Below, piece after piece: positions 1 through 31,804 of a stretch of DNA of 64,000 bases (position 1 is its first letter; each line of letters begins with the position of its first letter). The translations under genes were made by a program, and so were the position numbers. Origin of the DNA: Eledone cirrhosa (Eukaryota); assembly GCA_964016885.1 (NCBI GenBank), contig OZ024740.1, positions 401,574,001 through 401,638,000 on the forward strand. The letters are read 5' to 3'. Under the pieces are notes generated by a model. It ran no database searches, had not been told where the DNA came from, and saw only the letters and a list, made by a program, of their open reading frames with translations.

Positions 1-995
1 GTAAGAATAAACTGAGCTACATAATAAGGGTGTTTAAATGATTTCCATGTATATAAAAAGCAGACAGTAAAAGAAGAAATCAAAAACATAATTACAAGAA
101 ATATAGCCCGAGTATTATCAACCGATGGAAATTATAGTAAAACGAAGACAATATGAAAGAAATTGAATAGTCTTTAAAACCAAGTGAGGAAAGCAACCGA
201 CATAATTCGATATTTTTAGAAACGTTGATCGTATACACTCCAATTCAACAAACAGTCAGAAAGACAAATGTATGAGTGGTTGTTCTTTAATCCCAGGTCA
301 CTACAAATTGTGCAGAACTATCATCAAAGGCATTCTTTCATTTTTTATTCATATGTGTTGCATTTTAGGAATATATATATATATTTATACTAGGGGAGAA
401 AGAGAGAAAGAGAAGGAAGCTATATACGAGAGCGGTATGTAGAAAGACAGAGAAGTATAGAGTGAGATAGATAGAGAGGGAGAGAGACTTAAAAGTGATA
501 GTGATACATACATATTAGGCCAGTTATAATAACAATACATGTGAACATACAATTTAGCCACAGAGAAAGGCTATTTTAACATGAAGTATATTACAACACT
601 CGAAACACATAAAAGATATTTATGACTATGTTTTTTTTACTTATTAACTCACCACGCCATAAGCATTTCTGTCTATATTTACATAACATTTCTGATGTCG
701 TTTTTAATTACATTCATATCATATAACATCTATCAAAATCTTGGTGGTAAGTCGGTAAATAGCTTTTCAATTATGAAAGCATTTAGCTTTCATTTCTTCT
801 AGAACAACCCCGTGTAATTAAGAAATAAAATATTCTGCCGTGAATATATAAGCACAGTAGGATAGTTTCCTCTGACTGTCTGGGCCCTTCTTCGTTGTGA
901 AAAAAAAACAGCTAAAAATCTTGCCTAAGTCCGTTTTAATCGACTCTTCAGGGGTTCTGAAGAAATTATGAAGTTTATTGAGATCATATTACAAT

Positions 996-1026
<31 letters not shown>

Positions 1027-1429
1027 ACGTTTACATTTGTACGACAATACAGAGACAATGTTCATACATTTGTATGTTGTTCAATAGACGGGAACATTCA
1101 AGGAACATAGCTGGAATGAAAAATGAATTTCGCGACTAGATGAATCCATTCTATGTTTTAAATAGGGAAAGCGTGTGAAGGAAGAAAAGTTTTCCAATAA
1201 TATTCTCCAACGTGTCATGAATATACTTTGGTTGTGTTCAAGACAATAGGATACATTGTTTATAGATAAGATTCTGTTTACATTTAAAAGATTATTTAAA
1301 CAAATAAAAGCAATAATAATAATTATTATCATTAATAATTTTCATGGTTCATTTTTCTAAATCTCAGTCATTTAGATGTTAAATAATCTGGATATTTCAG
1401 TTAGGGAACAGTAAAAAAAATGTTGACAA

Positions 1430-1850
1430 AGGTCCCTCACAGCATCCTCTCCTTGCATAGATAATACATTCCTTACATTTCTTATTTGTATTAAGAAGTA
1501 CTGTTTTCTGCATGGCCCGTAACTCTGCATCAATTCCAATTCTATTTAGAGTCTTCAAAACTGTACGATATGAATCTCAATGCCCCAATTACCACTGGAA
1601 TCATTAAAATCTTCTTCCCCCTCAACAACTTTCGATCCTCTTCCTTCTGTGTCTCATACTTTTATATCTTTTCGTGCTCTTTATTCTCCACTCTACTATA
1701 TCCTGGGACAGATAATACAATACAATATGGCTGAGAGTTCATGCTTTTTGATTCACACATTCAACATAATGGTGATTCCATCGTTTCGTCAACATGATAT
1801 TCGAAGAGCTTTTCCTGGCTCCGACGCACTCTTCCTGTTGCTTTTAAATC
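1430..1850 (-). pseudogene. Decayed 3' end of an R4/Dong-type RLE non-LTR retrotransposon
   Basis: Manual minus-strand translation gives DLKAT...ESPLC*MC and ILMIPVVIGALRFIS...MQKTVLL, collinear with DLKKAT...SPLCRIC and VKVIPIVIGALGTIS...LQKACLL of the ORF at 29062-30057; stops and deletions present. Confidence 0.7.
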
Positions 1851-1926
1851 AAAACATAACACACTTATATATCATATATATACATATATCTACAAATGTA
1901 ACAACATCTCCACCTCAGCTCAGTAT

Positions 1927-2015
<89 letters not shown>

Positions 2016-2206
2016 AGATTTGAATGGATACAGTTTAGTTGAAAGGAATTTATTGACACGTGTTTCTATAACAGTTACATAACCTAAAACGGATATCTAC
2101 AAACTTTTAGTTATGCAGACATTCAATATTTCAATGTTATTATTTACTGTCATTTCATCAGAATAATATTACTGAGGACCTATTTAGTTTTTATTTGTTG
2201 TTATAT

Positions 2207-2313
<107 letters not shown>

Positions 2314-2403
2314 TAACAAGCAAAGAAAATTTCAATAATTTTTCGGCCCCATGATTTTTCAGCCCCATGGATTTTGTCTATTGTATTCCTTTGTTATATT
2401 TCA

Positions 2404-2462
2404 AATACCTGATGATGTCACCGGATTCATCCTGAACCCGGTCATTGAAATGATCATAGTAT
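2404..2462 (+). ncRNA. Type I hammerhead ribozyme motif within a (TA)n-flanked insert (about 2305-2660)
   Basis: atac-CTGATGA(2409)-stem II accgg/ccggt-GAAA(2447)-t-gatc-ATA-gtat; stem I atac/gtat. Confidence 0.6.
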
Positions 2463-2665
2463 AATAAACCTTTCAAGGAAGTACACCAGTCCAGCCTCCT
2501 TTTATTTTATAATAATTAACTCCGTACTCGCACCACCAACTACACAAACGAAGACGGGTGAGTTGCATTATGTTGAGTGCTCTCCATAATATTACACCGA
2601 GGTTGACCATACGGAATGACCAGTTCTATCCAGTGGTGAACAAACAAACCTAAATAAATAAATAA

Positions 2666-2713
<48 letters not shown>

Positions 2714-2718
<5 letters not shown>

Positions 2719-3028
2719 TTAGTTAAGCAAAGCAAGACCACACATTTCACAAGGAAGACATTATTAAAAGATTGTCAACATAGTTTTAGTTTGATGTAAG
2801 GAATGTAGAGAATAATTATAATAATATTAATAATAATAATGTCCGTTTACAATTGTTTTGCTACTCCATATAATGTTTCTGGATCAAATTATTATAGATC
2901 ATTATTGATCTGGTTCAGTTGAAAATAATTAACTCAGGTACAATTAGAGCAGCTCATCGGAACTTCAATCTTTTAATAATGTCTTCCTTGTGAAATTTGT
3001 GGTCTTGTTTTGCTTAAATAATGAATAT
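2714..3028. mobile_element. Inverted-repeat element (about 60 bp arms) enclosing a degenerate minus-strand hammerhead
   Basis: 2714-2772 is the reverse complement of 2966-3028; minus strand reads ccgatga-gctgctc...gagtagc-aaaac-aatt-gta (core mutated). Confidence 0.55.
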
Positions 3029-3208
3029 TTCCAGGTCTGTGCACCTGACCTCTGCATGAACCCAGCCACCTAGCTGCCTTCCACTGCATATTGCACATTG
3101 AGCACATGCCTTTACGCTTTGGCTTCTAACTAATTCACCAATCTTTCTTCTCCTCTCCTATCTCTTCTACTATCTCCATCTCTCTCTTTAAGATTGGTTA
3201 CTCTTGAA

Positions 3209-3487
<279 letters not shown>

Positions 3488-3601
3488 TAAACGGAATAGA
3501 AACTGCTGACAAATTGTTCACAGTTGAAAAATGGTATAATTAGGAATAAAAGACTATTAGTGATTGTATATTGTATTCCTTTGTTATATTTCAAATACCT
3601 G

Positions 3602-3691
<90 letters not shown>

Positions 3692-3780
3692 TATGTGTAC
3701 ATACATATGTATACAGACGTACAGTAGTATGTATTTTTTTTATCGTTTTCGGTACGTTCAATCGACTGACAGGAAGGTAT

Positions 3781-3824
3781 ACAGTGCTGATGACAGCTAA
3801 TAAGCTAGAAACTAGTTCATCGTT
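3781..3824 (+). ncRNA. Probable minimal hammerhead motif
   Basis: CTGATGA(3787)-c-agct-aata-agct-a-GAAAC-ta-GTT; stem I pairing weak. Confidence 0.45.
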
Positions 3825-5379
3825 CCTTTGTCAGTGTTGAAAAAAAGGGCAACGATGGTTGCCGAACACTGTACGGCTTAATTCGGACTGTTTGTTTACA
3901 AACAAACCGAACATTATAATAAATGTTCGGTAAGCCCATACGTACATATATATATATGTGTGTGCATGTATGTATGTATATACATACTACTGTACGTCTG
4001 TATACATATATGTATGTACGTATACATACTTATATTTAAGTATCAGCCGTACTAAGAGTGAGAAATTAAATTTCATTTTTTCCATTTATATATATATATA
4101 TATATATATAATATTCATATATATAAACATATATATATTTATGTATGCATATATATGCGGGTGTATGTGTGTATTTGTAGATGTCTATTTATATTTATCA
4201 TCTGGTATCGCTGTCTAATGTCATAATTTATATAGACTGGACGTCTCTAAATCCCGTTTTTCTTGTTTTAGTTATATCTTTGTATGTATCTTCATTTCTG
4301 AATATTATCCATTACCAAGAGAAAAAGTACCATACACATTTTAAACACTACAAAACACCAACTTCACAACCTACACTATCAACTAATATTTAGTCGCTGT
4401 AGTTGACAAAAAGAAAGTTTTCAAAATTCATAACAGAGTATTCTGTAAATGGATTTATACGTAGTCTTGCCTGGCTATGTTTTAAAATGTTGAATATTTT
4501 TATACTTGCTCAAAAGTCATGATTTTCAAGACAAATTTTCTATGGGAAAGTAGGTGCCCTATGACTCTAGTAGGCTCCCGTCGGTTGGACGATATCAGTA
4601 ATTCAAACGATCATCTTTATCACATACTGTGTCACGATGATTCTATCTGAGAATGATATTAGTGTTCATGTGTCTGTTTGATATTGAGACAACAGTGCTA
4701 TAGTTAAATGAGATGGCAGTTCATTTAATCATGTATGTGTAATAGCCGACTCGTTGTGCATGTATTTACAAACGCACACGCACACACGCATAAACACATG
4801 CGCGCGCGCACACACACACACACATACTGACACTCTCGCTCACACACATATATTTACGTATACACCATGTATATACTTAAGTGTTTATTCGATATAACTA
4901 TGTTGCATTTCTGATAATACTGTAAGTGTGTCTCTGTGTATGAATGCGTAAATGTTCCTTGTATAGGAAACGATGCTTAAATAAAGGCAATAATATATAA
5001 TGTCAGAACTTCACGCATATGTACACATGCGCAAACGTATACTACATAGAATTATCAATATCACGGCCACCACTAACACTGACACCCCCGACATAAACAC
5101 CCCATGTCCACCCGGACCTTACATAGTGTTGTTTCACTACAATGTCAGTTTACCTCTATCACACTTGCCGTTGTTTTTAGCTCGCATGTAATCCGACGTT
5201 CTTTAGCTGGGCTGGTGAAACATTAGATAACTTCAACAGAATGTTCAGATTAAACGTGAAAAAGTGTGAAGAAATACTGAGGGCTACTGCGGAACGAATA
5301 TGTTAACCTAGCTGGAATCCTATGAATGTTAACCGGAAGAGCAGCTGTAAATAAGAAATTACACTTGAATAAATTCAGT

Positions 5380-20360: not shown

Positions 20361-20813
20361 AATATTATAGTGACCTAGAAGAATGCATTCGGATGGCACA
20401 GCACTAGTCAATAAAGAGTGAGTGATATGTCGCTGAATTGACTTGCATTAAAACTCGATCTTCCTTATTTAGATTTCGTGTAGAAAATTCTAGAAAAACA
20501 AACGGAAAACTTGACAGTAAAATCTATTAGCTGTCACAACACTTATTATACATGCATATATGTATATATGTATGTATGCATGAATATATATATGTACGTA
20601 TGTATGTACGTATGTATGTATGTATGTATATATATATGTATGTATGTATGCATGTATGTATGTATGTATGTATGCATGTATGTATGTATGTATGTATGTG
20701 TGTGTGTATGTATGTATGTATGTAAGTGTGTGTGTAAAGTATATACGTATGTATACGTATGCATGTATACATGAATGTATGAATAAACACACACACATAG
20801 ACACACACACACG

Positions 20814-20863
<50 letters not shown>

Positions 20864-21191
20864 CATATGGATACACATTCACACATGGGGACACACATAT
20901 AGAGATGTCAGAGTGTGCATGTGAATATATATGCATGCATCTGTGTATACAAACGCAAATATTTATTCATATTGCTGGAGAGGCCTTTCCTGTAAACCCC
21001 ATTGACCCTACCACACAGGTGGAGTAATGTTGTGCTGGATGCCCAACTTGTATTGCTGACTATGAGGAAAGATTTCCGCAGTGTTAAGGAGATTGGACAA
21101 CGTGCTTAGTACGTTTTCAGTATGAGAAATAGTAAAGATGTGCATGGCAGAAGTCACAATGAGGTGTGTGCTGGCTTTTAGCTCAGATTAC

Positions 21192-21207
21192 AGTAGTAGT
21201 AGTAGTA

Positions 21208-21257
<50 letters not shown>

Positions 21258-21395
21258 GGTGGTAGTAGTAATAGTAGTAGTAGTAGTAGTAGTGGTAGTA
21301 GTAGAAGTAGCAGTAGTAGTGGTGGTAGTAGTAGAAGTAGTAGTAGATGTAGTAATGGTAGTAGTAGTAGCAGTAGTAATAGTAGTAGTAGTAGA

Positions 21396-21428
<33 letters not shown>

Positions 21429-21575
21429 GGTAGTGGTAGTATTAGTAGTAGTAGTAGTAGTGTGGTGGTGGTGGTGGTGGTGGTGGTTGTAGTAGTAGTA
21501 GTAGTAGTTGTGGTGGTTGTGGTGGTGTTAGTAGTAATGGTGGTTGTGGTGGTGTTAGTAGTAGTAGTAATAGTA
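21192..21575. repeat. Compound (AGT)n/(GGT)n microsatellite
   Basis: Direct reading; source of the poly-Ser and poly-Val ORFs. Confidence 0.97.
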
Positions 21576-21877
21576 GACCAACCACCAGAAAGTGTTGTTA
21601 GCTGTAAGTGAAAGTTTTTCCCATCTGTCAGATGGTCTTTTTAGAGCATTTACATGTGTAATATGTTACTCTAAAGTACCCTTAAACCTTGTGTCAGCAA
21701 CTTTGCACCTTCAAAATAATAATTAATAAATAAATAAATAAATAAATAAATAAATTTAATATAACATAATATAAAACTTTTACTTTTTTTTTTTTATATG
21801 AATAGACAAAATGAATCGATCTTTACCACCGTACATCAAATACAAAGCAAATTCAAAGATATACGAAAACTATTAAA

Positions 21878-21910
<33 letters not shown>

Positions 21911-21916
<6 letters not shown>

Positions 21917-23549
21917 CAAATAACGAAACGAAATTAAATTTCGTTTCGTTTGTAACTCACTTTTGTATGACTGACGCTTAAACAATTAAGTTAGAAGTGT
22001 ACATCCACATATGTATACTGAAATACTAGTATGCATATAAATACACACACGTATACATATGTAGATGTACCGAGTTTTTCACTGGACACTTTACTGTGAG
22101 TGTTCAGCTAGTCTGTATGTAAACACACAGACAAACCGGTTTTTAGAGTCATACTGGTTTTCGAGGAAACACCTTTCCTCTATTCTCCAGAGGGCCAGAC
22201 AGGAATATTGGACTAGTTTCGATGTTGTTACATCTCATCAGCAATATATACCCATCCTCCGGCCCCTCTAGAGAATCGTAAAAGCACATATCGTTATATG
22301 CTTTTTCTATGAAAATTAGTAGTGGGCAGACTAATTTGCATAGAGCGTGAGTACGTACCGGTTCAGCGGAAGCGATAAAAACAAATAACGAAACGAAATT
22401 AAATTTCGTTTCGTTTGTAACTCACTTTTGTATGACTGACGCTTAAACAATTAAGTTAGAAGTGTACATCCACATATGTATACTGAAATACTAGTATGCA
22501 TATAAATACACACACGTATATATATGTAGATGTACCGAGTTTTTCACTGGACACTTTACTGTGAGTGTTCAGCTAGTCTGTATGTAAACACACAGACAAA
22601 CCGGTTTTTAGAGTCATACTGGTTTTCGAGGAAACACCTTTCCTCTATTCTCCAGAGGGCCAGACAGGAATATTGGACTAGTTTCGATGTTGTTACATCT
22701 CATCAGCAATATATACCCATCCTCCGGCCCCTCTAGAGAATCGTAAAAGCACATATCGTTATATGCTTTTTCTATGAAAATTAGTAGTGGGCAGACTAAT
22801 TTGCATAGAGCGTGAGTACGTACCGGTTCAGCGGAAGCGATAAAAACAAATAACGAAACGAAATTAAATTTCGCCCTCTGGAGAATAGAGGAAAGGTGTT
22901 TCCTCGAAAACCAGTATGACTCTAAAAACCGGTTTGTCTGTGTGTTTACATACAGACTAGCTGAACACTCACAGTAAAGTGTCCAGTGAAAAACTCGGTA
23001 CATCTACATATGTATACGTGTGTGTATTTATATGCATACTAGTATTTCAGTATACATATGTGGATGTACACTTCTAACTTAATTGTTTAAGCGTCAGTCA
23101 TACAAAAGTGAGTTACAAACGAAACGAAATTTAATTTCGTTTCGTTATTTGTTTTTATCGCTTCCACTGAACCGGTACGTACTCACGCTCTATGCAAATT
23201 AGTCTGCCCACTACTAATTTTCATAGAAAAAGCATATAACGATATGTGCTTTTACGATACTCTAGAGGGGCCGGAGGATGGGTATATATTGCTGATGAGA
23301 TGTAACAACATCGAAACTAGTCCAATATTCCTGTCTGGCCCTCTGGAGAATAGAGGAAAGGTGTTTCCTCGAAAACCAGTATGACTCTAAAAACCGGTTT
23401 GTCTGTGTGTTTACATACAGACTAGCTGAACACTCACAGTAAAGTGTCCAGTGAAAAACTCGGTACATCTACATATGTATACGTGTGTGTATTTATATGC
23501 ATACTAGTATTTCAGTATACATATGTGGATGTACACTTCTAACTTAATT

Positions 23550-23552
<3 letters not shown>
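21911..23552. mobile_element. Retrozyme-like element: about 2.1 x 465 bp units joined head-to-head to about 1.5 inverted units, in (TA)n
   Basis: Units start at 21911, 22376 and 22841; inversion at 22873; ORF track repeats at 22065/22530 (+) and 23262 (-) confirm the period. Confidence 0.92.
22205..22247 (-). ncRNA. Minimal type I hammerhead (also 22670-22712 on minus; 23286-23328 on plus)
   Basis: atattg-CTGATGA-gatgt-aaca-acatc-GAAAC-ta-GTC-caatat; all stems pair, canonical GUC site. Confidence 0.93.
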
Positions 23553-23631
<79 letters not shown>

Positions 23632-24374
23632 ATTTATATTTGTATTATTGTATTAATCTCCCAAATCAAGCGATTAACCAGTTAATTTTTTGGGGGCTTT
23701 TTAGTTAATTCTATTGACTGATTAATCGCTTAATTTTATTTTTAAAAACAACTCGGTAGAGATCTTAATTGGTTTTGTGCGGTTTTTGCAAATTTTTGCA
23801 ATTAATACACATGCTGAATTCACTGGCCAAAATAAGGGTTTTCTCCCCTTAGAATCTCACAAGTGCTTTCATAACCTGCGAGATTCTGGCGCAAGAAGAA
23901 CAAAACCTGTTGAGAAAGCGATTACTTGTTCGATCATTATACCAAAAGCTTATTTTTTATAAGCAGACAGTATTATTGATTTAGGTGTTGCAGAAACCCA
24001 ATTTCGGAGTATTCCATCTTCCCCGAGAGTCCGGGTAAATATTTCAATCATATCTCATTTTGTTTGACCCGTTTAGCTTGTTCGCTTTTTTGGCTATGGT
24101 GGTTAATGGCTTCTTAACCATCGTCTCAGCGTGTATGACCATTTTAACTTATGTTTATAGCTCTGGTATCTTCTTCATATCCATGGAGCCCTTGTCTGCA
24201 CAATATGGAAGTTGCGTTTCGCTAATTTCTACCCGCCGAAATGCGATTCTCGCTAAATTTATATTTATATTTATATTTATATTTATATATATATTTATAT
24301 TTATATTTATATATATATTTATATATATATAGAATCATTAGAACATCTGAATGATAAAATGACAAGTCAATCAA

Positions 24375-24525
24375 TCATATTGGTGGACTCCCCACAGCCC
24401 CGGCGGACAGAATGGTGAAGGCGTTTCCCCGGAGGACGGCAAGGGAGATGCGCTGGAAAAGCCATTCGAGCTCGTGTGGCTCACACCTGTGGCTGGCCAG
24501 TTCAGCGCCTAAGGTGGTGGGTACT
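24375..24525 (-). pseudogene. CRE-like RLE non-LTR retrotransposon 3' fragment
   Basis: LGAELA..EP.ELEWLFQRISLAVLRGNAFTIL, the C-terminal QRISLA..RGN motif typical of CRE-clade elements. Confidence 0.7.
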
Positions 24526-25264
24526 TTTACTAGGAATATAATTTTATCGCCAATGTATACATGGCTGTACATGCTAGAGCACTGTATTCAAAGGTGTAGT
24601 CGATTATATCAATATGAGTACTTAACGGGTACATACTTTAGCACTGTCAAATTGATGAAAGCTAAACTCGTTTGATGGCTTTCCAACATCAAACCTGATA
24701 ACGCTAATCACAATATGCCAAGTTTTTCCAGCCAACGTTCTATCAATACTGCGTTCCGGCGCAACGTAATATAATCCGTATTATATATGTGTGCATGTGT
24801 GCATGCGTATGTATGTGTGTGGGTGTGTGTGAATGCACGCGTGTGTGTATGTGAGTGCGTGTATGTGTGTGAGTGCGTGTGTGTATGTGCGTATATGTGT
24901 ATTTATTAATACATGTGTGTGTGTGTGTGGGGGGGGGGGGGGGGTGAATGCACGCGTGTGTGTATGTGACTGCGTATATGTGTATGTGTGTGAGTGCGTG
25001 TGTGTGTATGTGCGTATATGTGTATTTATTTATGCATGTGTGTGTGTCTGTGTGTGTGTGTGTGACTATGCATGTACTTATGCATATATAACTATACGAT
25101 ATACAATATATACAAAATATGCTAATAAAAAACAGAACAGGCACAAAGAACGAATGGAAAATTATTTAGCAATTGTATAATAAGTTAACGCAATTGTATA
25201 ATAATGTTTGAGGATTGTAAAAATGTTTATTCATTATTCATAAATTATATATTACCCTCTTTGC

Positions 25265-28975: not shown

Positions 28976-30056
28976 GTTATTGTTATTCCTTGAATCTCAG
29001 TCATTGATGTTGGTTAACTGGAAAGTCCGTTGGATTGAATATCAAGCCACTACCTGCAGCCTCAGATATTCAGGACGTATCGGAGGGTTCTTGCCGTTCC
29101 AAGCAAGCATGCCTTTTGAAGCGTTCCAAACAGCATGAAGGGGCCGATTTTCTTTAACCATCCCTGGAAACCTTTGGAGATAGTCCCCAGTGCGCCTATG
29201 ACAATCGGGATCACTTTGACTTCATGGCAGTTCCAAATCCTTTTCACCTCCCACTTTAGGTCCTGGTATCGGTTAATTTTCTCCCTCTCCTTCTCTTGCA
29301 CTCTCGTGTCGAACGGGCAGGCCACATCCACAATCAGGCACGATCTTTTTTCTTTGTCCACAACCACCAGGTCAGGTCTATTGTGTTCCAGTTTTTTGTC
29401 CGTCTGTATCCTAAAATCCCACAGCACCTTCACCTGACTGTTCTCCATCACCGCCTCTGGCCTATTCTCATACCATTTCTCAGAATGTGGTAGATTGTTT
29501 ACTTTGCACAGGTGCCAGTGGATCACCCTGCCCATCACATCGTGTCTCCAGCCCTTATAGTGGGTCTGGGCTAGGTGTTTACACTCGGACACAATGTGAG
29601 CCACAGTCTCCTCTCTCTCTCCACAGATCCTGCACAGTGGGCTAGCCTCCTCCTTGTAGATATGGTGCTTCAACCACTTCGTTTTGAGGGCCTGCTCCTG
29701 CGCAGCCATTAGCATTCCTTCTGTAGCCTTTTTGAGGTCTCCTCTTCTCAACCAGTTCCATGTCTGTGGATCTCTAAATTCAGTTTTCTCAAAGAAGGTA
29801 CTATGAAGGGATTTTCCCTTAAGGCTGCTCTTCCTCCTTGATGTTATTTCCTCCTTGGATATCCCCTGGCCTACTGTCCCCTCCTTCAGTACAGCTCTGA
29901 GCATTGGCTCCTTACTATAGGTCACGTATTTGTATAGGTTGTTTTTCTCCATCTGAACACAGTCCTCTATGCTGATAAGACCTCTTCCACCCTCAGATCT
30001 CCTTAGGTAGAGTCTATCGACATCACTCCTCTTGTGGAACATGTTGTAGATAGTCA

Positions 30057-30057
<1 letters not shown>
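28976..30057 (-). mobile_element. R4/Dong-type LINE copy A, 5'-truncated, open 331 aa C-terminal ORF
   Basis: CCHC knuckle CRICGEREETVAHIVSEC, RHD motif, RLE motif PDLVVVD...D, KY-like motif; (ATT)n on both sides. Confidence 0.93.
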
Positions 30058-30112
<55 letters not shown>

Positions 30113-30113
<1 letters not shown>

Positions 30114-31804
30114 GTTGTTATTACTCTTTGAGTCACAGTCATTGATGTTAGTTAACTGGAAAGTTTGTTGAAATGAATATCAAGCCACTACCTGCAGCCT
30201 CAGATATTCAGGACGTATCGGAGGGTTCTTGCTGTTCCCAGCAAGCATGCCTTTTGAAGCGTTCCAAAAAGCGTGAAGGGGCCAATTTTCTTTAACCATC
30301 CCTGGAAACTTTTTGAGATAGTCCCTATTGCGCCTATGACAATCGGGATCACTTTGACTTCATGGCAGTTCCAAATCCTTTTTACCTCCCACTTTAAGTC
30401 CTGGTATCGGTCAATTTTCTCCCTCCCCTTCTCTTGCACTCTCGTGTCGAATGGACAGGCCACATCCACAATCAGGCACGATCTTTTTTCTTTGTCCACA
30501 ACCACCAGGTCAGGTCTATTGTGTTCTAGTTTCTTGTCCGTCTGTATCCTAAAATCCCACAGCACCTTCACCTGATCGTTTTCTACCACCGCCTCTGGCT
30601 TATGCTCATACCACTTCTCAGAATGTGGTAAATTGTTTACTTTGCATAGGTGCCAGTGGATCACCCTGCCCATCACATCATGTCTCCAGCCCTTATAGTG
30701 AGTCTGGGCTAGGTGTTTACACTCGGATACAATGTGAGCCACAGTCTCCTCTCTCTCTCCACAGATCCTGCACAGTGGGCTAGCCTCCTCCTTGTAAATA
30801 TGGTGTTTCAACCACTACGTTTTGAGGGCCTGCTCCTGCGCAGCCATTAACATTCCTTCTGTAGCCTTTTTAAGGTCTCCTCTTTTCAACCAGTTCCATG
30901 TCTGTGGATCTCTAAATTCAGTTTTCTCAAAGAAGGTACTATGAAGGGATTTTTCCTGAAGGCTGCTCTTTCTCCTTGATGTTATTTCCTCCTTGGACAT
31001 CCCCTGGCCTATTGTCCCCTCCTTCAGTGCAGTTCTGAGCATTGGCTCCTTACTATCAGTCACGTATTTGTGTAGGTTGTTTTTCTCCATCTGAACACAG
31101 TCCTCTTTGCTGATAAGACCTCTTCCACCCTCAGATCTCCTTAAGTAGAGTCTATCGACATCACTCCTCTTGTGGAACATGTTGTAGATAGTCAATAGCT
31201 TCCTAGTCTTCCTATCCATTTCTTTCTGTTCAGCAACATTCCATCTCAGAATTCCCGCTCTGTACCTAATAGACACAGCTCGGGAATTTACTGCACTTAT
31301 GGCATTCCTACTGTTCAGATGTGACTTACTCTCCGAATGTATTCGGTTCTTATCAATTCCTTCATTTTTTTGTTCTTGATGTCATCAGCCTCCAGAACGC
31401 CCAAATACTTGTATCCTTCTTCAGAGTCAATTTCCTTTATCATCTCACCCGTTGGTACCTAGATTCAGTTACTTCTGCTCAACTTACCCCTCTTCATCAC
31501 AATGACTCCACACTTACTAATACCAAATTGCATACATATATCATTGGTGAAAATACGGACAGTGTCAACAAGCACATCCAACTCCTTCTCACTCTTCCTG
31601 AAGAGCTTAAGATCGTCCATGAGAGGAGGTGATTGATGGTAAGTCCTCCCTTTCCCAACCTGTATCCTGCTGTCACTTTTTGCAGTACACTGGTCAGGGG
31701 CATCAGGGCAAGGAGAAACAACAGAGGGGACAGACTATCTCCCTGGAAGATACCTCTCTTGATCTTCACGCTTCCCAAGGATTCTCCAGTTGATGTTAAC
31801 TCTG

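Follow-up and report, generated by a model that had tools for sequence, protein, structure and literature searches.

How a short ribozyme-bearing element without a reading frame comes to lie in a genome as two head-to-head arms, each longer than one of its own units, is the question raised by positions 21910 to 23554 of a 64,000-nt stretch of the Eledone cirrhosa assembly (GenBank accession number GCA_964016885.1; contig OZ024740.1, positions 401,574,001 to 401,638,000 of the forward strand), here called the window. The arms interrupt a (TA)n microsatellite. They very probably represent a single insertion of a hammerhead retrozyme into (TA)n, for which the reverse transcriptase-endonuclease of a Penelope-like element (PLE) cut both DNA strands and the two 3′ ends primed cDNA synthesis at different internal sites of the RNA.

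The repeat unit is 465 bp long, as the original prediction had stated. Tandem Repeats Finder reported 2.1 copies of this period with 99% matches over 21910 to 22873, and a repeat finder identified an inverted repeat of 682 nt with 2 mismatches between this array and 22873 to 23554, which greatly exceeds chance. Both arms were therefore longer than one unit and arranged head-to-head, in line with the prediction (Table 1). The unit is a short head-to-tail repeat with a G+C content of 37.8%, and the longest stop-free stretch in a tetramer of it was 90 amino acids, leaving it without a reading frame; a hammerhead with the open helix I of type I topology was found in all three complete units. These are among the features by which retrozymes are recognized. 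The outer boundaries read TATATA/AAAAC on the left and TTGTTTA/TATATA on the right (the stroke marks the boundary), and the predicted anchoring of the arms to (TA)n at two different words of the unit, GCGATA/AAAAC at unit position 1 and TGTTTA/AGC at unit position 67, was borne out. These two outer ends are referred to as A and B. Between them lies a palindrome, AACGAAACGAAATT-A-AATTTCGTTTCGTT, within which the left arm breaks off at unit position 31, again as predicted, and the right arm begins at the center at unit position 283. Because the left-arm hammerheads lie on the minus strand and that of the right arm on the plus strand, both outer ends are cDNA 5′ ends and hence priming sites; in both arms, the 5′ end of the sense RNA is at the center and the 3′ end at the flank.

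Table 1. Features of the two-armed insertion (positions are those of the window; unit position 1 corresponds to window position 21913)
Feature	Position	Strand	Basis	Remarks
(TA)16, left remainder of target microsatellite	21881-21912		Tandem Repeats Finder	
Left arm, 964 bp (2.07 units of 465 bp)	21910-22873	- (ribozyme-sense strand)	Tandem-repeat and base-by-base comparison	Outer end of A type, unit position 1, ATA common to arm and (TA)n; inner end at unit position 31
Perfect palindrome of 29 nt, 14-bp stem and 1-nt loop	21922-21950		Sequence, self-matches, fold	Unit positions 10-38
Palindrome, further copy	22387-22415			
Hammerhead, type I topology	22189-22259	-	Rfam HH9	Predicted cleavage after GUC, unit position 299 (window 22211)
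Hammerhead, second copy of left arm	22654-22724	-	Rfam HH9	465 nt from the first
Palindrome, copy split by junction	22852-22873			
Head-to-head junction	22873			Unit position 31 joined to 283, 1-nt overlap (G)
Right arm, 682 bp (1.47 units)	22873-23554	+ (ribozyme-sense)		Reverse complement of left-arm unit; outer end of B type, unit position 67, TA common to arm and (TA)n
Palindrome, further copy	23118-23146			
Hammerhead, right arm	23274-23344	+	Rfam HH9	GUC at 23320-23322
(TA)38, right remainder of target microsatellite	23553-23629		Tandem Repeats Finder	

Across the 3.0-Gb genome, a first-look search with the 465-bp unit returned 1,213 candidate regions. Ends at unit positions 1 to 4 were classed as A and those at 67 to 75 as B. 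Exact A ends beside (TA)3 numbered 2,020 genome-wide (reversed-pattern control, 0), while exact B ends beside (TA)n numbered 691 for unit position 67 (B67; control, 0) and 612 for unit position 72 (B72; control, 2). The retrozyme is thus a family of roughly 2,000 dispersed insertions, of which the window locus is an ordinary member; (TA)n flanks were present in the window and at nearly all loci viewed.

The two ends were rarely found in any combination other than A with B. A first sample of 33 unique loci (30 from the best-scoring matches, minus 5 duplicates, plus 8 more of the same list) contained 28 with two arms, comprising 24 with one A and one B end (A+B) and 4 with one truncated or noncanonical end (L020, L022, L048, and L050); the remaining 5 were single-armed (3 with A only and 2 with B only). 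Because these loci had been selected by score, two further samples were drawn by position. From the first 100 A ends of contig 1, every fifth was taken (n = 20 loci), which yielded 16 A+B insertions, 3 with A only, 1 that extended beyond the stretch, and no A+A. In a census of all 64 B-end matches between 0 and 142.6 Mb of contig 1, 33 had a correctly oriented exact A end as partner according to their coordinates and 16 more were A+B by sequence. The others were one B+B locus (2 matches), one complex locus, 2 with B only, 5 adjoining non-TA DNA, 3 left unresolved, and 2 that were not family members. Over all inspected loci, 65 head-to-head junctions were identified (51 A+B, 1 B+B, 0 A+A, and 13 in which an end was damaged or cut), so that A+B accounted for 51 of the 52 junctions having two canonical ends. 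Both arms exceeded one unit in 17 of 61 two-armed loci, making this feature of the window common in the family, and arms reached up to 13 units in arrays that contained only the 465-bp unit.

Independent loci with different inner junctions repeatedly show these two outer ends. Nine runs of (UA)2 or longer are present in the sense RNA, but no outer end falls at any of them, indicating that the choice of start sites does not depend on pairing to the (TA)n primer. Every start site comes after a short U-run.

Inner junctions varied among loci and were not mirror-symmetric (for example, 31/283, 230/376, and 91/32 in unit positions). They showed overlaps of 0 to 11 nt or short fillers; the filler of L014 was a 13-nt piece of the retrozyme, and L008 contained several switches. 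Inner ends clustered at unit positions 27 to 46 (the palindrome), 75 to 130, 274 to 289, and 354 to 387, which are the feet of predicted hairpins, and the window junction joins two such hot spots. The 31/283 junction was identified at two further loci, about 9 to 10% diverged from the window, and a near-identical junction, 30/279, in L063. Locus L106 (G000:C3:125527500-125534500, 2627-3809) is an older insertion with the 31/283 junction, about 91% identical to the window; its left arm has 2.08 units, its right arm is one unit shorter than that of the window, and its flanks are unrelated. Given that the window units are 99 to 100% identical to young loci having other junctions, the window junction most likely formed anew.

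Exactly three substitutions were counted between the window copies, where about three had been predicted: at 22521 (T, versus C at 22056), 23166, and 23259. The two left-arm units differ at 1 of 465 bases and the arms at 2 of 682 positions. A test had been proposed of whether the variants at 23166 and 23259 match the two arms to different source loci, an idea that did not survive comparison with other copies. The changes at 22521 and 23259 are singletons (1 of 73 and 1 of 59 copies, respectively), and that at 23166 is a CpG transition altered in 4 of 54 copies. As private or CpG variants they do not point to different sources, and they look like postinsertion changes or copying errors. Elsewhere in the family, the arms of one locus differed at 0 to 6 positions (11 in one locus), and private variants common to both arms numbered 0 to 2 per locus.

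The hammerhead had been called canonical with a GUC site. The core (CUGAUGA...GAAA...GUC) is indeed intact and the GUC site present, with a helix II of 5 bp, but helix III is minimal and consists only of A-[CUAG]-U, giving the palindrome ACUAGU. Each of the three copies scored 32.3 bits against Rfam HH9 (E value, 1.8e−5), under the gathering score of 52, and an Rfam scan of the whole window at gathering thresholds gave no match. According to a review (PMC7761336), a weak helix III is typical of the retrozymes of amphibians and of the hammerheads of PLEs, which undergo cleavage as dimers. Co-folding of two hammerhead domains did not recover an ACUAGU/ACUAGU helix III, active folds often not being those of minimum energy, so that action as a dimer stays an expectation.

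The 14 core nucleotides were almost invariant over about 60 copies (minor-allele fraction, 0.002, versus 0.017 elsewhere), and the extended helix I carried two compensatory changes (GG/CC in 16 copies, GA/TC in 8, AA/TT in 33, and mismatched in 2; n = 59). From these alignments, the core and helix I appear to be under selection at the RNA level. Approximately 61 copies had no insertion or deletion at the cleavage site, the nearest being one insertion ten bases off. With its two left-arm hammerheads, a transcript of the minus strand would free a 465-nt monomer. Folding of the 465-nt sense RNA as a circle predicted a free energy of −163.5 kcal/mol with 69% of bases paired (z = −12 versus mononucleotide shuffles). 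Some arms terminate at unit positions 296 to 302 (L091, 381-679; also L056, L058, L030, and L097), and the L091 arm stops exactly at unit position 298, the 5′ end expected from hammerhead cleavage. Such arms may reflect run-off on self-cleaved linear RNA, although their enrichment is weak.

A series of steps can be proposed by which one integration event would produce this architecture. A PLE-type enzyme would cut both strands of the (TA)n tract, after which one DNA 3′ end would start a cDNA at A and the other at B, on an RNA longer than one unit and thus predicted to be circular or multimeric. The two antisense cDNAs would be joined at their 3′ ends via microhomology of 0 to 11 nt or a short filler, and each would then template the second strand of the other, generating the head-to-head repeat. 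The cDNA ends would tend to accumulate at stable RNA hairpins, which could explain why the window junction lies inside the palindrome. The 66 to 74 nt between A and B, including the 29-nt palindrome, would correspond to the PLE "tail."

The original prediction had invoked two independent rolling-circle cDNAs primed from the two ends of one break. Priming at both ends agrees with the geometry and the recurrent ends, but independence does not agree with 51 A+B insertions out of 52; near-strict A+B pairing would instead suggest one coordinated complex, perhaps a dimer, and not two free choices. There is just short of an even chance that, in completed insertions, the two start sites are divided between the DNA ends of one integration, which would imply a single asymmetric, probably dimeric, complex. 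With initiation being internal, the same complex could copy a circular ribozyme RNA round and round. If so, it would hold one RNA module (the palindromic hairpin between A and B) together with both ends of the break, and retrozyme tandem arrays would be born at integration and not through later unequal crossing-over. Multiunit arms are already present in young insertions such as that in the window.

Could the second arm instead derive from the first? Self-priming (snap-back) of one cDNA or RNA at the palindrome has been put forward for PLEs, on an antisense template (Arkhipova et al. 2013, PMC3846280), and would suit the position of the window junction inside the 29-nt palindrome, the cluster of inner ends at unit positions 27 to 46, a true fold-back at the palindrome in L097, and the nearly mirror-symmetric junctions of L100 (185/176) and L103 (402/383). 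Such an event would, however, yield a mirror-symmetric junction and identical outer ends. The window junction joins unit position 31 to 283, most junctions are far from symmetric, and the outer ends differ in 51 of the 52 junctions with two canonical ends, which leaves snap-back very unlikely here; the family also argues against mirror-symmetric self-priming as the general origin of the inverted copy. Two separate insertions of opposite orientation into one (TA)n tract, or a later inverted duplication of one arm at the DNA level, are highly improbable. Although (TA)n is a hot target and neighboring independent insertions are known (L017, L026, and, in L094, a copy of element X, a PLE family described below), no (TA)n separates the two arms, both are 5′-truncated at a common junction, and they differ at only 2 of 682 positions. 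Separate insertions should moreover produce A+A and B+B loci as often as A+B, against observed counts of 0, 1, and 51, and a DNA-level copy of the left arm, the alternative named in the original prediction, would bear an A end in place of the B end observed. It is hardly credible that the inverted structure is an assembly artifact: long-read data do contain palindromic chimeras, and no unitig listed bridges the junction, but artifactual fold-backs are mirror-symmetric, which this junction is not, the two flanks are different unique sequences, and dozens of loci spread over many contigs share this architecture. Snap-back, separate insertions, duplication, and misassembly are each contradicted by the asymmetric junctions together with the A+B rule.

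A rival of greater weight accepts dual priming and concerns only the template. Somewhat below an even chance, but a serious contender, is that read-through of a tandem locus supplied the RNA as an uncleaved multimeric transcript, with no rolling circle involved. The source loci in the genome are themselves arranged in tandem, their arms reaching up to 13 units; hammerhead mutants had no effect on PLE insertion in vitro, where unprocessed multicopy RNA was the main substrate (PMC11167929); and with a minimal helix III, monomers are expected to cleave poorly (review, PMC7761336). On the other side, in those species that have been studied, circular RNAs of metazoan retrozymes accumulate (PMC7229834), internal initiation requires no free 3′ end, so that a circle could serve, the hammerhead core and helix I are under selection, and a few arms end at or beside the cleavage site (unit positions 296, 297, 298, 301, and 302).

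Several observations weigh against integration by dual PLE-type priming with divided start sites. The independent unitigs are 50 to 100 nt long, and none of those listed spans 22873 with 31 nt on both sides, so the junction is as given by the assembly. Two loci depart from A+B pairing: L088 (G000:C1:141066605-141068005, 307-1051), the sole B+B insertion seen, with both outer ends at unit position 67, and L097 (G000:C1:67841835-67847135, 309-3048), a four-armed locus with outer ends B72 and B67, a fold-back on the 29-nt palindrome at its center, and the 31/283 junction. Second arms ending at unit positions 418 (L048, 1754-1830) and 412 (L099, 1842-1895) do not use either site; lying 48 to 54 nt past site A, they may mark a rare third start site. 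The occurrence of 31/283 at three loci requires either strong pause sites or an inherited composite. For the purified Anolis PLE protein discussed below, start sites in vitro showed no difference between the top strand and the bottom strand (PMC11167929), and A+B pairing is therefore not predicted by that study. Lastly, BLAST comparison of the unit with 15 loci from the endonuclease search (L031 to L045), including five confirmed PLEs, returned only TA-rich low-complexity matches.

That comparison forms part of a search for a PLE partner. A GIY-YIG search of the genome returned 10,594 first-look candidates, and 150 of 150 scored above the Pfam cut-off. Five reading frames carried RVT_1, with GIY-YIG detected by Pfam in three and the endonuclease motif visible in all five translations; all five also carried the CX2-5CxxC linker, which Craig et al. 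(PMC8557442) tied to (TA)n bias. Many dispersed retrozyme copies therefore coexist with abundant PLEs in this genome, as described for metazoan retrozymes. No Rfam hammerhead was found at the five PLE loci at an E value of 0.01 or better. A sequence common to the retrozyme and an autonomous PLE of the same genome, expected for mobilization in trans, was not found among the loci compared, which cover a small fraction of the PLE copies in the genome. That the unit is the end of a PLE was rejected for the loci seen, their arrays being pure 465-bp units, and it is not an autonomous PLE, having no long reading frame. No PLE was identified in the window, where only weak zf-RVT matches were obtained; two reading frames at 29062 to 30814 on the minus strand (E values, 7e−4 and 7e−3, below the cut-off) are probably a decayed reverse transcriptase-bearing element.

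One young PLE family, element X (found in L022/L107), is a candidate partner of the retrozyme, on thin evidence. It has 2,409 candidate regions, its copies are 96 to 99% identical, and its reading frame aligns with PLE reverse transcriptase and the GIY-YIG motif; no Rfam hammerhead was found in it at an E value of 1 or better. Element X inserts in (TA)n as inverted arms (L094, G000:C1:63039245-63044545, 1025-4131) and its outer ends fall into two types, separated by about 105 nt and matched exactly 716 and 185 times. Of the "504-type" ends on contig 1, 26 fall inside the stretch covered by the "611" listing, and 6 of these pair, judged by coordinates only, with a "611-type" end; the same measure yields two candidate 611+611 pairs (contig 1) and one candidate 504+504 pair (contig 3). 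In L107 (G000:C3:345092900-345101900, 73-4409; also L022), a retrozyme A arm of 1.27 units lies head-to-head with a full X copy (pseudo-long terminal repeat [pLTR], reading frames of 264 and 538 amino acids, pLTR), and the composite sits between two (TA)n tracts. The two parts are linked by a 59-nt sense fragment of the retrozyme (unit positions 368 to 310) and an 18-nt filler. The 59-nt piece is not part of X, since the other X copies listed start 77 nt later. This locus could be one chimeric integration event or a later X insertion accompanied by a deletion.

Other repeats were observed near (TA)n. Locus L042 (1382-2043) has (TA)n tracts on both sides of a 231-nt inverted repeat (99%; spacer, 200 nt), which adjoins a Neptune-like PLE with 4.98-kb direct repeats and may be another small two-armed insertion. 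The right flank of L004 and the left flank of L020 have in common an unrelated sequence (...gcttaaactttaatctgtta...) beside the retrozyme, probably another repeat landing in or near (TA)n. The surroundings of the window insertion are dense in microsatellites (20559 to 21576 and 24257 to 25064), including (TATG)55, (AC)29, (AGT)128, (ATTTAT)12, and a TG-rich tract, and the genome sample is very rich in (TA)n overall.

Among known systems, the hammerhead satellites of newts, Schistosoma, and cave crickets are tandem repeats whose type I hammerhead has a weak helix III and is considered to work as a dimer. Descriptions present them as satellite arrays, whereas about 2,000 dispersed short insertions with defined ends are found here. 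LINE-1 twin priming, reportedly described by Ostertag and Kazazian in 2001, is said to involve priming on the RNA by both ends of a break and joining of the cDNAs by microhomology, with an inversion as the result; the second priming is said to use internal sites that vary along a single linear poly(A) RNA, and the two segments not to overlap. Priming by both break ends and 5′ ends at the center are common to that process and the retrozyme. The retrozyme sites, in contrast, are both fixed, and the insertion in the window has no poly(A) and overlapping arm contents, each arm exceeding one unit.

Published work treats retrozymes as tandem arrays whose mobilizing partner, though unknown, is probably a PLE (PMC7229834, PMC7761336; Li, Clavereau, and Pollet 2026, preprint), and the preprint ascribes their tandems to local amplification. 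The link between animal retrozymes and PLEs has so far consisted of co-occurrence and, recently, pLTR phylogeny. The E. cirrhosa element resembles the metazoan non-long terminal repeat retrozymes of Cervera and de la Peña (2020, PMC7229834) in its few-hundred-base-pair noncoding tandem unit with one type I hammerhead each, its low G+C content (38%), its highly self-paired predicted RNA, its thousands of dispersed copies, and its co-occurrence with PLEs. It differs in unit length (465 bp, versus 170 to 400 nt for their circular RNAs), in the minimal palindromic type of its helix III, and in consisting of two inverted arms with fixed ends and a (TA)n target where tandem arrays were described; PMC7229834 contains none of the terms "inverted," "microsatellite," and "target site." A literature search that did not take in most subscription journals found no published account of retrozymes with inverted arms, with fixed ends, or with a (TA)n target, and none that explains the inverted PLE copy by dual priming.

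The architecture matches that of PLE insertions, whose integration mechanism is still termed undefined in the literature. These are described (Craig et al. 2021, PMC8557442; Arkhipova et al. 2013, PMC3846280) as partial tandems beside an inverted, 5′-truncated copy; they prefer (TA)n, carry a "tail" of 30 to 40 bp at just one of their ends, and have palindromes where the inverted copy is joined. The window and the 65 junctions show the same partial tandem plus inverted 5′-truncated copy, and the retrozyme family likewise has a one-sided tail, a (TA)n or AT-rich target, and a palindrome near the junction. In contrast to PLEs, the retrozyme unit has no reading frame, its tail is 66 to 74 nt long, and its arms are described as whole multiples of the 465-nt unit. 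Frangieh et al. (2024, PMC11167929) showed that the purified Anolis PLE protein PAc cuts and extends both strands in vitro, starting from two neighboring internal positions of the RNA that have no homology to the target; the tail corresponds to the RNA separating these positions, the target is AT-rich, and the hammerhead is dispensable in vitro. Cutting and extension of both strands from two internal, nonhomologous start sites thus link PAc to the retrozyme, but PAc showed no difference in start site between strands, whereas the retrozyme ends almost always use different sites. The insertion signature is accordingly of a known kind, and the point for which no counterpart was found in print is the near-strict A+B division, with the two start sites used one per DNA end. 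The family offers about 2,000 short, often young insertions with base-resolved ends, and for a biochemical test its 465-nt RNA, having a defined hairpin and two start sites, makes a convenient substrate. In E. cirrhosa, the full PLE signature is carried by an element that has only a ribozyme.

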